From Draconibacterium orientale (GTDB lineage Bacteria; Bacteroidota; Bacteroidia; Bacteroidales; FEN-979): a stretch of 49,698 nucleotides of DNA. The first letter of the stretch is position 1. Each line of letters opens with the position of its first letter. Below are positions 41,601 to 46,941 of the stretch, piece by piece. Under the pieces are notes generated by a model. The model did no database searches, was not told the DNA's origin, and saw nothing but the letters and a program-made list of their open reading frames with translations. Both the position numbers and the translations under genes were made by a program. The DNA is taken from the NCBI GenBank assembly GCA_020719165.1, contig DYQT01000002.1, forward strand, positions 1 through 49,698, read 5' to 3'.

Positions 41601-42630
41601 TCTGCAATGGGATTTTGATATTTGAAATACTTGCCCTCACCCCGGCGATATCCCCGTCGTAAACGATCGTAAGGCAATTGGTGAGCGATTGGATCATTCG
41701 ACACTGATCTTCGCTCAGGGCGGTTCCTGAACCGGCTACCACGTTCTTGATCCCGGCCAGGTGCCAGCTGATCAGGTCCGTTTGACCTTCAACCAGCAGG
41801 CACTCGTTTTCTTTCATGATATCCCGTTTGGACTGGAATAGTCCATACAGGAATTTACTTTTCTTGAATACATCGGTTTCGGCGGTATGCAGGTACTTGG
41901 CTTTATCCTTCTCTGTTACGAGCAACCTTCCGGTAAAGCCAATCACCCGACCTGAACGGTCTAAAAACGGGAAGATGATGCGTTTATGAAACGCATCGTA
42001 ATAATGGCCTTCGTCATTTTTCTTGATCAAGCCGGCGGCCAGCAACATATCATCGGAGTACCCGGCCTGATGGGCAGCCCGCATGAGGTCGTTGCCGGTA
42101 CCGGCGTAGCCGATGTTGAACAGGTCGATGGCTGCAGCCAGCTCCCGCTTCATGAGATATTCAAGCGCAGGTTTATTTTTCTGAAGGTTGGCGGCAAAAT
42201 ATTCTACGGCCCATTTCAGCACCGCGAATATCCCATCACGGCGCTTTTCGTTTTCAGAATACTCGGCATCGTTTCCATTGAGGGAAATGGTGATCTCGTA
42301 TTTGCCGGCAATGTAGGTAAGCGCTTCAACAAAGCTCATGGCCTCATGTTCGCGCAGGAACTCAATGGAGTCGCCCGACCTTCCGCAGCCAAAACATTTG
42401 TAGATACCCTTCACCGGGTTCACCATGAAGCTCGATGTTTTCTCGTGGTGGAACGGGCAGCAGGCGGTATAATTTACACCCTTCTTTTTTAGCATTACGA
42501 AATCGCCAACGATATCGGCAATTTGGGCGGCATCTTTTATATCTTGGATGTTGGAGATCACTGGGAAGGGTGTAAATAGGTTTACGATTCTATTTGATGG
42601 GTATCGTTTAGCGGAAGGCTTAACTGGCAA
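38671..42630 (-). CDS. DnaG-type primase (CHC2 zinc finger plus Toprim) fused to a large P-loop NTPase/helicase-like C-terminal region
   Basis: CCPFHHEKTSSFMVNPVKGIYKCFGCGRSGD (CHC2 finger), LLVEGQTDLISWH...IVYDGDIAGVRA (Toprim) and FFIGPTESGKSRIAE (Walker A) in the C-terminal half. 1319 aa. Confidence 0.85.
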   Translation of the reverse strand: MPVKPSAKRYPSNRIVNLFTPFPVISNIQDIKDAAQIADIVGDFVMLKKKGVNYTACCPFHHEKTSSFMVNPVKGIYKCFGCGRSGDSIEFLREHEAMSFVEALTYIAGKYEITISLNGNDAEYSENEKRRDGIFAVLKWAVEYFAANLQKNKPALEYLMKRELAAAIDLFNIGYAGTGNDLMRAAHQAGYSDDMLLAAGLIKKNDEGHYYDAFHKRIIFPFLDRSGRVIGFTGRLLVTEKDKAKYLHTAETDVFKKSKFLYGLFQSKRDIMKENECLLVEGQTDLISWHLAGIKNVVAGSGTALSEDQCRMIQSLTNCLTIVYDGDIAGVRASISNIKIPLQMGMDVYLVVLPGDEDPDSYVRKYGAATLANFIEDNRKDIVSFRIDMVKEQLDQDPLQKARLVKELVSQISLMPDEETRGYLLSDISRKLDVNRDDLVKTVKKHLPAIEHQEAGFFGLDASEESIREKGFAILLASPGAVVARHAEGQENTISLPDGLLKKDDIFRLAKLTKNVKVEGLTHVVDDNDVESPLTEAGRLLTEQGFRVEVREIAAVDDNDDPDAAVYIDFLDFYVRGLAYRLMRQPDTKRSKKFVEMVAEFLSKLDNTIIHIKTNEIAKKFNLPAASFSKVLRPFVEKRKNLAVQQQEQVVIDDQQFVFDIAHLPDYVDQQFFQRYGFFPAQNKTGNKIFYVFRTLDNTLVKVGNFYLEPLFQVYDDDPNKNKRIVELFHSELNTAEYVEFKSSDQVELSQFKKFLWNVGGYIFSNGKQYHHEKIMESNALQFPKCWEFSTFGWQQEQFFAFSNGIIADNHFTSVDELGLVKFKNVTYYSPAFSKIYKDRRSDSDRYQYDRFLVYKPDQRTSWLEWSTLMHKVYQYNNNGMWALLFTILSANRSTIFPIERFFTALFFIGPTESGKSRIAESIRAPFMYGAPLFNLNSGTDAAFFTTMERFCDIPVITEEYNDYQISDIKFQGLKASVYDGEGKQKRKDATSKDIDVSKILCSLVLLGQEGPERDDGALGNRVVLKHVPKKDDWTNEEVLMYTDLKDRERDGLSNIVLEIIRRKPIVHKHFAAYMRDAQKQVKKDIQAEGGTYQTRIINTVSLFIAVSKLWEDFVKDLPLPFKFSEFYEDAKRQITRQSEELSTSNRLALFFNFIGMEYAQGRILSGREFDISLETRVTVQISKTETDELYWNGEPKKILWIIINDIIVSYQKMHNTESLKLASLRAYLKDHPSYIGQIKSHRFEYQTESWRSDPITGTNQRIIEKGERNTSCVALDYKVIEAMGIDLQRIKIADQTSLNMNMSDNLSQPKNLQNDLPF

Positions 42631-43121
42631 AACCGTGAATCCATGTAAAGTTTCACGTTTGTTTCTACGCGTTGAATTTCCCTGCCGATGGTTGAATACA
42701 GGTTCTTGAGTTTTTTCAACCGCTGATAGTCAACTTTTATTTGTTGCTCTTGCTCATAACTTCCATAGATGAAATCGAAAACGAGCGATTGATATAGAAT
42801 AAACTTTTCGCGTAGGTGATCAACAATGGTATTCGCATTGATGATCTGGATCCACCGGACAAATCCTTTTTTGCTCAGCAAAACCCGACCATTTTTATCA
42901 ATTTCGCCTAAATCTGTAGACTTTTTCCCCACCAGTTTATTGGTTTGAGACAAGACTGTACTGTTTTTTCCGTACAGTTTGCCTAAAATTGGATCGTTTT
43001 TGATCTTAGTGTACTGGTTTTTCACATCCAGTTTAAAGAAATCGCAAACTGGTTTTATCCAGATATTGCTATTTTGAAACCTTATCGTTTCAGTGAACAT
43101 TATTAATTCAGTGTTTTCCAT
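42582..43121 (-). CDS. P22-antirepressor N-terminal-domain-like protein
   Basis: IWIKPVCDFFKLDVKNQYTKIKNDPILG...GFVRWIQII parallels 46393..46941 (AVKPICEAIGVDYIQQYKNLNDDPILS...IYGWIFSI). Confidence 0.55.
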   Translation of the reverse strand: MENTELIMFTETIRFQNSNIWIKPVCDFFKLDVKNQYTKIKNDPILGKLYGKNSTVLSQTNKLVGKKSTDLGEIDKNGRVLLSKKGFVRWIQIINANTIVDHLREKFILYQSLVFDFIYGSYEQEQQIKVDYQRLKKLKNLYSTIGREIQRVETNVKLYMDSRFCQLSLPLNDTHQIES

Positions 43122-43145
43122 GATTATTTATTTGAATTTTTAATT

Positions 43146-43534
43146 TTTGTTCCACCCCCGGAATCGAACCAGGGAGAAACCATTATGAACTAATCTATAC
43201 TTCAATTAACCTTACGCAACATTACTTCACATGACTTAACCTCACATTACTTGACACCACCTCACCTTACTCCATGGAATAAAACCCATCCTTTATTTTT
43301 GTTCCACCCCTGGAATCGAACCAGGGATAAACCATTGTGAACTGGACCATACAAAACCTCACATTACAAGACCCAACGCAACAGGACAATACTTCACATT
43401 ACACTAAAGAACTTACTTTTTGTTCCACCCCCGGAATCGAACCAGGGGAAAACCATTGTGGGCTTCACAGTACAATACTAGACTACACTGAACTTTTCTA
43501 CACTTTACTTCACAATACTTAGAACGCTATATAA
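43146..43534 (-). repeat. Three-unit tandem array; each unit is a C-poor variable region followed by a 45-bp tRNA-3'-half-like module
   Basis: 45-bp repeats at 43146-43190, 43298-43342 and 43419-43463, with 40-42 of 45 identical pairwise. The minus-strand reading contains CCTGG-TTCGATT-CC(A/G)GG-GGTGGAA-C. Unit lengths are 152, 121 and 116 bp. Confidence 0.85.
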
Positions 43535-44110
43535 TTAATTATTAATTTCATTGATTTCATCCAACCTGAACCTGCCGAATGGGCCGTTATTGGTTGGCCG
43601 GTATGAACCGATTCCAACATTATTACCGGCAAAACCCAAAATCTGCTTTACCATATTCATGGAGATGGTGTCATTATCAACCATTAATGTAAATGATGCA
43701 TCCCAGGTTGACCATTTAGGGCGCACGGTGATCACCCTGGCTTTCACGTTCCTGTTTACCGCGGAACGCTTATCTATTTCGTCATAATCGGGCATTACCA
43801 CCTGGTACGGATCAACCTGGAACATTGCAGCGACAGTTGATTTCATCGATTTTGTTTGTGAACCGACTTTCCCCTTAACAAAGGTGCCTGCTGCTATAAA
43901 TGCTCCACGCAGGTGATCAGCCGGGATAAAACATTTACCGGAGGAGTTTCTGTAACAATGATACTCTGCCCTCACTGCATCCTCTTTCGAAACATCAGGA
44001 TTTGTGATAACAAGGTTGTGTTGTTTTTCCCAAATATCGAGCTTGGTATCATCCATCCGGTGCTGCATGTATGGAGAAATTCCGGTAATCTTTACTTTAA
44101 ATGCTTTCAT
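43535..44110 (-). CDS. Hypothetical protein with RAMP-like sequence motifs (unverified)
   Basis: 191 aa with KVKITGISPYMQH, FIPADHLRGAFIAAG and a C-terminal Gly-rich loop (GIGSYRPTNNGPFGRF). The resemblance to Cas5/6/7-type RAMPs is at motif level only. Confidence 0.65.
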   Translation of the reverse strand: MKAFKVKITGISPYMQHRMDDTKLDIWEKQHNLVITNPDVSKEDAVRAEYHCYRNSSGKCFIPADHLRGAFIAAGTFVKGKVGSQTKSMKSTVAAMFQVDPYQVVMPDYDEIDKRSAVNRNVKARVITVRPKWSTWDASFTLMVDNDTISMNMVKQILGFAGNNVGIGSYRPTNNGPFGRFRLDEINEINN

Positions 44111-45829: not shown

Positions 45830-46390
45830 TTAAAGCAAATTATTTTGGTAGGCGTAAGCAGTGATCCCGGCTTTGGAATGGCAGCCAATTTTCTTTTTAA
45901 TGTTAGTGCTGTGTACTGCCATGGTATTAAGAGCAATCCCAAGCATGTCGGAGATCTGTTTATCGAGCAGATCACGGGCAATTAACTTTATGATTTTAAT
46001 TTCAGTTGGAGTAATCTTTCCATTTTTAACCAGTAACGGCTGGCAAATGATTCCTTCAAACTTGCATATGCCACGTTTCTCACAGTTAACATGCTCATGA
46101 ATGATAACACCATCGGCAGTGAGATCAGCCTTGTTATCGAAGTTTCCGAAATTGCAGATTGCCCATTGCTTGAGTTGATAAATGGGATTTGTAATTCCAA
46201 GTTGATTTTCAATGGCATTGAGAGCCCTTGGATGGGCATCAAGATCATCACGCAGTATATTCAGTTGGAGAACATCCAGTTCTTCAAATGAATGTTTGCC
46301 TTGGTTATTCATGAAAAAAACATTGTCATTTTCTTCATAGAATTCATAATTCCCTTCAAGGGTACCTGCTGGGGCGTGGGATGTTTGCAT
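45830..46390 (-). CDS. LuxR/GerE-type HTH transcription regulator
   Basis: C-terminal ITPTEIKIIKLIARDLLDKQISDMLGIALNTMAVHSTNIKKKIG fits the GerE HTH. The N-terminal domain has a Cys cluster (CEKRGICKFEGIIC). Confidence 0.65.
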   Translation of the reverse strand: MQTSHAPAGTLEGNYEFYEENDNVFFMNNQGKHSFEELDVLQLNILRDDLDAHPRALNAIENQLGITNPIYQLKQWAICNFGNFDNKADLTADGVIIHEHVNCEKRGICKFEGIICQPLLVKNGKITPTEIKIIKLIARDLLDKQISDMLGIALNTMAVHSTNIKKKIGCHSKAGITAYAYQNNLL

Positions 46391-46392
46391 GG

Positions 46393-46941
46393 CTACAGAA
46401 GTTTAGCTGTTCCGGTAAAAAGGTCGGCCACTTCGCGAAGCTCACGCTGATCGAGTTGTTTAAAAGCAATGCCGAGACGGGCCTCTGCTGCTTTCAGTTC
46501 TTGCCATTCTGTAAATGCGGTATTTTCATTGAGGGAAGTAACCAGTTCACTTATGCGGGCTTTGGTTTTCACTTTTGCTGTGAGAAGTTCATGACGGTGG
46601 GTGATGGTACCATTGAAATGGTCGAATAGAATATTGTAACACTCACGCTTATAATCAACCAATTCTTTGGCATTGCTTTGGATTGAAAATATCCAACCGT
46701 AGATATATCTTTCCGGCATACATACCATATTTCTTCCCTGATCTCCGGGTATCTGTATTGTGTATTTACACAACACAGATGAAAGAATAGGATCATCATT
46801 CAGGTTCTTATATTGCTGAATGTAATCCACACCAATTGCCTCACATATAGGCTTTACAGCGATGTAATACACGCCATCTTTCGCGAGAAAAAGCAAAGTT
46901 TTACCGTTAAACGACAAAAATTTTACAATTGATTGTTTCAT
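46393..46941 (-). CDS. P22-antirepressor N-terminal-domain protein
   Basis: FNGKTLLFLAKDGVYYIAVKPICEAIGVDYIQQYKNLNDDPIL...RNMVCMPERYIYGWIFSIQ...YKRECYNILFDHF fits the phage antirepressor N-domain pattern. Confidence 0.65.
   Translation of the reverse strand: MKQSIVKFLSFNGKTLLFLAKDGVYYIAVKPICEAIGVDYIQQYKNLNDDPILSSVLCKYTIQIPGDQGRNMVCMPERYIYGWIFSIQSNAKELVDYKRECYNILFDHFNGTITHRHELLTAKVKTKARISELVTSLNENTAFTEWQELKAAEARLGIAFKQLDQRELREVADLFTGTAKLL

Follow-up and report, generated by a model that had tools for sequence, protein, structure and literature searches.

Positions 43144-44110 on the minus strand of a 49,698-nt stretch of DNA assigned to Draconibacterium orientale (GenBank assembly GCA_020719165.1, contig DYQT01000002.1, positions 1 to 49,698; hereafter the window) can be identified with high confidence as a VIPR (Viral Interference Programmable Repeat) locus of a tailed phage. 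The locus comprises a single vipr gene followed, on the same strand, by an array of three genes for the small RNAs termed vrRNAs, and the window is a tailed-phage genome, encoding a tape measure protein, a head-maturation protease, a tail spike, and a DnaG primase. In VIPR, vrRNAs of ~100 nt work together with Vipr, a small RAMP encoded by the phage. Each vrRNA is made of 9-16 tandem pentamers YNNGG (GGY/NN) and then an invariant structured 3' tail of ~40 nt, with NNNGG, YNNNG, and NNNNG as repeat alternatives in some of the VIPR types I-VII (10.64898/2026.04.26.720920). The arrays adjoin vipr and may be staggered, interspersed with hammerhead ribozymes, or single; one Vipr protomer binds each pentamer, sequestering GGY, while NN pairs with double-stranded DNA (dsDNA) and each third target base is skipped, and repression by the complex falls on genes of competing phages, satellites, and prophages (10.64898/2026.04.26.720920). 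According to the same preprint and its companion cryo-electron microscopy paper (10.64898/2026.04.26.720927), the 3' structure caps the filament and the R-loop forms 3' to 5'. The kind is already known from preprints of April-June 2026, to which the present locus adds a new member, and the view of a first-pass annotation, made from the DNA letters alone, that no such system had been described is out of date. One of the three inferences it offered, that of an array of small RNAs bound by a protein, CRISPR-like in logic but lacking a cas operon, coincides with the VIPR description.

The vipr gene is the 191-aa open reading frame (ORF) at 43535..44110 (minus strand), placed correctly by the first-pass annotation just upstream of the array and on the same strand. 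By sequence, its product is homologous to SUSP1 Vipr, whose structure has been characterised: the single sequence matched PDB 36pp_D ('SUSP1 Vipr protein') with a phmmer E of 6.4e-8 (residues 1-188 vs 1-192), and a profile of 53 family members matched the same chain at full length (E 4.1e-14, residues 1-187 vs 1-191), 36pp chain D being the one PDB sequence strongly matched by that profile. The ORF had no match in Pfam, NCBIfam, or PADLOC and belongs to phrog_4652 (E 8e-24), annotated in PHROGs as of 'unknown function'; more than 700 homologous clusters at 90% identity were found in metagenomes. An AlphaFold2 model (pLDDT 75, pTM 0.70) submitted to Foldseek returned 106 PDB matches at E<=1e-3, the best being to Cas7-family RAMPs (E 4.3e-7, probability 1.0, TM about 0.5). 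The 50 matches listed were all Cas7-type RAMP complexes, among them type VII Cas7, Csm3, Cmr4 (Cmr-beta), and Cas7-11, which bears out the RAMP resemblance that had been proposed from short motifs. We thus predict, with moderate confidence, a minimal RAMP fold of ~20 kDa with a single RRM core, a G-loop, and a thumb.

The three motifs singled out in the first-pass annotation correspond, in the alignment to SUSP1 Vipr, to strand beta-1 with H17, helix-1, and the G-loop. R130, R171, and H17 are invariant across the 53 family members, as are the G-loop residues G162, G166, G168, S169, R171, P172, G176, and G179. In SUSP1 Vipr, R138, W178, and R179 hold repeat G2 and Y3, and D177 hydrogen-bonds G1 (10.64898/2026.04.26.720927). 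The first three of these residues align to R130, Y170, and R171 of the window protein, with H17 kept and position 170 aromatic, the family consensus having F there and the window protein Y. SUSP1 D177 aligns to S169, an invariant Ser in the family of the window protein.

Downstream of vipr, the first-pass annotation had described three 45-bp repeats (43146-43190, 43298-43342, and 43419-43463), which on the minus strand are pairwise identical at 42/45, 40/45, and 40/45 positions. The stretches between them measure 107, 76, and 71 nt and contain 5, 7, and 5 plus-strand G, respectively, leaving the gene strand C-poor. Both descriptions were reproduced. The stretches had been taken for drifting spacers, a reading that overlooked their 5-nt periodicity: G-T recurs in a fixed 5-nt phase in 10/11, 15/17, and 16/19 pentamers of the three units (tail pentamers included), and mononucleotide-shuffled windows contained 0.05 such runs against the three observed. 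The stretches are programmable pentamer guide tracts, not degenerating filler.

The first guide tract begins 16 nt past the vipr stop codon, and all three lie on the minus strand. That of vrRNA-1 (43465..43519) has 11 pentamers N-G-T-N-N, with GT in phase in 10/11; these read AGTAT TGTGA AGTAA AGTGT AGAAA AGTTC AGTGT AGTCT AGTAT TGTAC TGTGA and give the NN read-out AT GA AA GT AA TC GT CT AT AC GA. By the same pentamer phase, the tract of vrRNA-2 (43344..43413) has 14 pentamers, read out as TC AG AA GA AT CC TG TG CT AA GA TT AT CC, and that of vrRNA-3 (43192..43271) has 16, read out as AA GA GG CA AA GA TA CA GA AA TG AA TA GA AT TT. Across 2,907 pentamers from 169 distinct arrays of the family, the pentamer logo carried 0.19 (N), 1.74 (G), 1.58 (Y), 0.11 (N), and 0.13 (N) bits. 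The Y position was T in 93% and C in 6%, and repeat position 1 was A in 40%, T in 35%, G in 15%, and C in 10%. The repeat is thus N-G-Y/NN, equivalent to the 'YNNNG' alternative of the preprint authors and not to GGY/NN. Judged from the alignment, position 1 would be free in this clade because Ser169 replaces the G1-reading Asp.

Array and gene also occur together outside the window. The first-pass annotation had proposed a search for their co-occurrence, and arrays were located within 250 nt of the gene at 71/79 distinct homologue loci (~90%), downstream of it in 56/73 and upstream in 34/74. Run orientation was almost exclusive: 183 runs followed the gene strand and a single one the opposite strand. 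In some relatives (vipr homologue loci, which carry L numbers here), unbroken in-phase runs of 66-98 pentamers were present (L011 4619-4983, L015 5579-5998, L076 2494-2983, and L087 1685-2034); these may represent the 'staggered/overlapping' array type of the preprint. L017 and L018, independent Logan assemblies of the same phage, both break in the array, ending 117 nt past the vipr stop. Short-read assemblies probably collapse or break up at the repeated tails, and arrays may therefore be under-represented in metagenome contigs.

Each guide tract is followed by a tail of ~48 nt composed of three conserved pentamers, a hairpin, and AACAAAAA. What the first-pass annotation had read as a tRNA 3' half is this vrRNA tail (handle). 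The T-arm that it had reported, CCTGG-TTCGATT-CCRGG, is present in all three copies, followed by GGTGGAAC and an A-run, and features of a T-arm are there in sequence (a 5-bp stem, a G53-C61 closing pair, and a 7-nt UUCRANN loop). When folded alone, however, the tails formed one extended 12-bp hairpin, GGUUUNUCCCUGG [UUCGAUU] CCRGGGG(U)GGAAC, with a minimum free energy of about -16 kcal/mol (-16.3 for vrRNA-1), in which the supposed acceptor strand pairs locally with the supposed anticodon-stem/variable-loop segment. The segment AGTTC ACAAT GGTTT, which had been read as anticodon loop and anticodon-stem strand, is an in-phase extension of the pentamer tract. The tail of vrRNA-1 (43417..43464, minus strand) has the pentamers AGCCC ACAAT GGTTT and its hairpin at 43422-43453; that of vrRNA-2 (43296..43343, minus strand) has AGTTC ACAAT GGTTT and its hairpin at 43301-43332; and that of vrRNA-3 (43144..43191, minus strand) has AGTTC ATAAT GGTTT and its hairpin at 43149-43180, with the loop at 43162-43168. 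All three were delimited by repeat identity and fold, share the loop UUCGAUU, and end in the same trailer.

The vrRNA-2 tail had a fold z-score of -3.1, and 0/200 shuffles folded equally well; no pseudoknot was detected in the tail. The stem contains a bulged U and several G.U pairs, and the differences between copies (U.G to U-A, U.G to C-G, and A-U vs mismatch) are one-sided and mostly keep the pairing. Relatives with a ~70% identical Vipr (L019, L223, and L224) carry 11-13-bp hairpins of unrelated sequence in the same place, with GAGA, GAAA, UCGU, or UUCGCC loops and a related CAC(A/U)AAA trailer after them. In a MAFFT/RNAalifold consensus of nine subclade tails the hairpin was kept, and 6/7 consensus pairs showed compensatory changes. 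Among 194 distinct family tails, the TTCRANN loop occurs in those of the window only. Since the closest relatives have hairpins of 11-13 bp with other loops, hairpin length is a trait of the clade and the loop is not conserved. The T-loop likeness is real at the level of sequence and lineage-specific. What is conserved, it seems, is the need for a 3' end that is structured or defined, and the T-loop is the form that this takes in one lineage.

Unit ends elsewhere in the family take other shapes. In L020 (1674-2100) and L225 (3075-3470), they are intrinsic-terminator-like hairpins with a U-run, which suggests unit-by-unit transcription, and in L023 (636-1100) and L025 (2915-3080) a short TTCATATTCA motif stands there with no hairpin. 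Within one clade, tails thus range over a T-loop hairpin, GNRA hairpins, per-unit intrinsic terminators, and short linear motifs, and this diversity suggests several different solutions to vrRNA maturation. In the window, no sigma-70-type promoter or terminator was found between units. Their separation must therefore fall to some nuclease, and the three vrRNAs are probably released from a single transcript beginning at vipr or ahead of it. A 24-nt linker or leader, out of pentamer register by sequence read, precedes vrRNA-3 (43272..43295, minus strand; TAAAGGATGGGTTTTATTCCATGG). It may pair with the 3' strand of the preceding tail (GGGGTGGAAC) in some folds and could provide an alternative structure at the unit boundary.

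By homology to the systems of the two VIPR preprints, we infer for this clade filament assembly on pentamers, gapped DNA pairing, and repression of competitors. After nuclease separation of the putative single transcript, Vipr protomers would form a polymer on the repeat tract, with one protomer to each pentamer, sequestering the conserved G-Y and exposing the NN dinucleotides. These would pair with dsDNA of a competing phage or mobile element, skipping each third target base, and the pairing would silence transcription. The structured 3' tail would cap the filament, with the R-loop growing from the tail in the 3'-to-5' direction.

Among known systems, the locus most closely resembles those described as VIPR, for example the type II systems of Escherichia phage SUSP1 and a Pseudomonas fulva prophage (PDB 36pp). 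Shared features are a small (~20 kDa), full-length-homologous, phage-encoded RAMP, three downstream RNAs on the same strand, fixed/hypervariable pentamers in a number of 9-16 (11, 14, and 16 here) with an invariant structured 3' tail, and the presence of neither cas genes nor a CRISPR array. Unlike SUSP1, which has a pseudoknot tail, the window tails are simple 12-bp hairpins with a T-loop-like loop, and the protein shares little identity with SUSP1 Vipr (E 6e-8). Several further points weigh against the assignment to VIPR. The canonical GGY trinucleotide is absent, the repeat being N-G-Y/NN here vs GGY/NN in SUSP1, and Ser stands in place of the G1-reading Asp; the match to the reported 'YNNNG' alternative marks a variant and does not exclude VIPR membership. 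The AlphaFold2 model is of moderate confidence (pLDDT 75; TM about 0.5 to Cas7), and, unlike in the VIPR systems just named, no conserved accessory (vap) gene was found next to vipr in the clade. The 1-nt-skip rule has been demonstrated for GGY/NN type II systems only. Searches under this rule brought up no target, whether in the window itself, among 218 loci, in IMG/VR or, with a single guide, among GTDB genomes, the IMG/VR and GTDB scans being by exact matching only and of limited power.

No self-target was present in the window under skip rules of 0-3 nt, and 187 guides from all loci, searched by spaced seed against ~1.5 Mb of locus DNA, showed no enrichment over shuffled controls. Exact NNx patterns for 10-11-pentamer cores of the three guides had 0 matches in IMG/VR. 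Guide 2 had four matches in GTDB genomes, which were chance-like, with flanking pentamers agreeing at 2-4 of 14 positions; one of the four lay in an ORF that could be recognised, and its skip base did not coincide with the wobble position. BLAST of contiguous triplets gave chance matches only (E=8). The idea that position 1 mirrors the target wobble base, giving a contiguous triplet code, leans negative, with no clean codon signature. Position 1 did depend on the preceding NN (log-likelihood z=4.0), with TAG depleted (z=-3.4) and TAT enriched; TAA and TGA were not depleted, and xGT triplets were depleted for reasons of register, out-of-register GT being avoided.

The predicted fold also invites comparison with the Class 1 Cas7 filaments (Csm3, Cmr4, and type VII Cas7), with which the modelled protein shares an RRM core, a G-loop, and a thumb (Foldseek E 4e-7). 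By analogy, both would place a protomer at each fixed step along the RNA and flip bases out periodically, as Cas7 does on crRNA, and both combine a variable guide with a conserved handle cap. Unlike Cas7, with its 6-nt periodicity, the locus has a 5-nt step, carries its guide information non-contiguously, and is borne by a phage. It also has no Cas1/Cas2 adaptation module, Cas5/6/10/11 partners, or repeat-spacer array; its units are pentamer tracts with a tail and not repeat-spacer units, and PADLOC, Pfam, and NCBIfam gave no matches pointing to CRISPR-Cas for the ORF or its neighbours. The array is comparable to punctuated arrays, such as hammerhead-interspersed vrRNA and engineered tRNA-gRNA arrays, in carrying several guides per transcript with a structured separator that possibly directs cleavage. 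In contrast to these, the separator here is a T-loop-capped hairpin, neither a ribozyme nor a full tRNA, and cleavage is putative. TRAP, which acts in attenuation of the Bacillus trp operon, is an oligomer that reads (G/U)AG repeated ~11 times with 2-3-nt variable spacers, at ~5-nt periodicity. The likeness to Vipr, as an oligomeric protein that would read a short repeated RNA motif at ~5-nt periodicity, is one of analogy only: the folds are unrelated, TRAP forms a ring vs a helical filament, and TRAP spacers hold no targeting information.

Given the T-arm-like sequence of the tails, we scrutinized the locus for tRNA relationships. ARAGORN found 0 tRNA or tmRNA genes in the whole 49.7-kb window, and Rfam at gathering thresholds found nothing. 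The tRNA model RF00005 at E<=10 matched neither the surrounding 3 kb nor an isolated 53-nt piece with the 45-mer at the sequence end, even in truncated mode. A tRNA gene is rejected, since there is no cloverleaf and no acceptor stem with a 5' strand, in agreement with the first-pass annotation, which had also held that the repeats are not tRNA genes. A 5' acceptor partner far upstream (GUUCU or UUCCAU vs GGAAC) was tried as well; pairings of 4-6 bp occur in all units, at chance level, and such a partner is unneeded because the local 12-bp hairpin accounts for the strand. A looser tail pattern, GGTTCGN{4,6}GGGGTGGWWC, had at least 120 matches in IMG/VR, in unrelated GC-rich sequence, and no upstream pentamer array among the matches listed.

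The tail hairpin might still be a working mimic of a tRNA acceptor/T-arm minihelix that recruits host tRNA enzymes, a proposal that would add to the VIPR assignment and that we regard as improbable. RNase Z or RNase P would be recruited to cut the array; the CCA-adding enzyme and TruB/TrmA are further candidate recruits. The 12-bp helix has the length of acceptor plus T stem and carries a perfect T-loop consensus as its cap (G53-C61 pair, loop UUCGAUU), an unpaired A-rich trailer lacking CCA follows, and units with no intervening promoter or terminator need some nuclease. Self- or host-processing punctuation is already used in VIPR, in the form of hammerhead-interspersed vrRNA arrays, and a vipr subclade (L090, L093, and L094) has a genuine acceptor plus T-arm minihelix, scoring 25.8 bits, just upstream of vipr. 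Set against this are the restriction of the TTCRANN loop to the window phage and the different loops of its closest relatives on hairpins of similar length, both given above, the failure of the tRNA covariance model to match, and a stem with a bulged U and several G.U pairs. A cut by RNase P at the helix base would, moreover, sever the tail from the guide. A 7-nt loop fitting TTCRANN with a G-C closing pair has a chance probability of ~6e-4, for a locus that was picked for its tRNA look. tRNAs are not mentioned in the main text of 10.64898/2026.04.26.720920 or in the available part of 10.64898/2026.04.26.720927. There is a slim chance, then, that in this phage RNase Z-type host maturation enzymes cut the guides from one transcript and perhaps modify or stabilise them. 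If so, the array would be a natural counterpart to engineered tRNA-gRNA arrays and, together with the minihelix of L090, L093, and L094, would mean that VIPR systems have recurrently used tRNA mimicry for maturation.

The two other inferences of the first-pass annotation fared worse. That the RNAs are tRNA-mimic decoys or sponges against tRNA-targeting defences or T-arm-binding enzymes, unlinked to the ORF, is very hard to sustain: a T-loop-like hairpin in three copies speaks for it, but the D-arm and anticodon arm are absent, the 'anticodon' part consists of in-phase pentamers, and no tRNA model matched. The tail, moreover, varies freely in relatives, and it is the pentamer tract and the linkage to vipr that are conserved. 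The stretch from the anticodon loop to the 3' end of a tRNA is a classic sublocation of phage attachment (att) sites, and the 45-mer covers just this part of a would-be tRNA. Yet the idea of a multiplied attP block for integration at a tRNA gene has against it the 24-nt T-arm plus acceptor core (CCTGGTTCGATTCCRGGGGTGGAA), which had 0 exact matches in 185,579 species genomes (GTDB), and a 26-nt version with 0 exact matches in IMG/VR; no integrase was seen among the ORFs scanned, in a scan that was not exhaustive. Another DNA element, a set of replication-origin iterons, could be imagined from the DnaG primase gene, which lies two genes from the intergenic repeats. Across the 79 loci, however, arrays track vipr and not replication genes, and their strand ratio is 183:1; it is because of this strand specificity and vipr linkage that the origin reading is rejected. 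Hairpin pairing kept through G.U pairs and compensatory changes points to RNA, and the homologous arrays of SUSP1 are transcribed and Vipr-bound (10.64898/2026.04.26.720920). Taken together, a DNA element of either sort is extremely improbable. A VIPR locus accounts for what the first-pass annotation had flagged, a RAMP next to an RNA array; that reading went astray in treating the handle as the main feature and missing the 5-nt code.

VIPR, which recognises DNA under RNA guidance, was described only very recently and has been proposed as the ancestor of the RAMP effectors of CRISPR. It is represented in none of Pfam, NCBIfam, and PADLOC, with PHROGs recording 'unknown function'. The present locus belongs to a large environmental clade (the >700 protein clusters noted above) that uses the less-studied N-G-Y/NN repeat, and Ser in place of the G1-reading Asp offers a structural explanation of the relaxed repeat code that can be tested. 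The diversity of maturation bears on the expression and engineering of such guides.

The VIPR locus sits in a regulatory/early region of the phage, beside the DnaG primase gene, and BLAST of the region against INPHARED phages gave no match. Two ORFs with P22_AR_N (antirepressor-like) domains, at 46393-46941 and 42582-43121, flank it on both sides, and a LuxR/GerE-type regulator is encoded at 45830-46390. The downstream one, a 179-aa ORF (42582..43121, minus strand), is only weakly P22_AR_N-like (Pfam PF10547, E 5.8e-7, 30.1 bits vs a cut-off of 30.7) and is a purely positional candidate accessory (vap-like) gene; tblastn found no homologue of it next to vipr in related loci. The upstream 167-aa ORF had a single weak homologue by tblastn (26% identity, E 5e-7), in L010, ~2.5 kb downstream of the vipr of that locus. 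Clustering of neighbours across 96 loci gave no family present in more than 7, and the clade appears to consist of vipr and vrRNAs only, or to have non-homologous partners.

Other tRNA-related elements were seen on phage contigs with vipr homologues. tmRNA genes (Rfam RF00023, ~90 bits) occur in L008 (5700-6103) and L014 (1438-1785), the former also called by ARAGORN, with a tag peptide ending AIAA. Immediately upstream of the tmRNA, at L008 5588-5697 (also in L049, T-arm at ~4097), lies a ~110-nt tRNA-Leu-like element with an acceptor stem GTCAGG/CCTGAC, a D-arm GGCGGAATGGTAGACGC, and a proper T-arm; a long insertion replaces its anticodon arm, and ARAGORN makes no call. The acceptor plus T-arm minihelix of the divergent subclade is 49 nt long (GGTCAGG...AAAGGTTCGAGTCCTTTCCTGACC; L093 2926-2974), with the D and anticodon arms deleted, and ends ~30 nt before vipr; no GT-phase pentamer runs were detected there. 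Its T-arm is also found in L094 (~2951), L090 (~2691), and L085 (~1629); in L085 the minihelix is 1.4 kb upstream of vipr. A GGGGC/GCCCC hairpin and a TTTTGTTTTGTTTG tract lie upstream of the minihelix.

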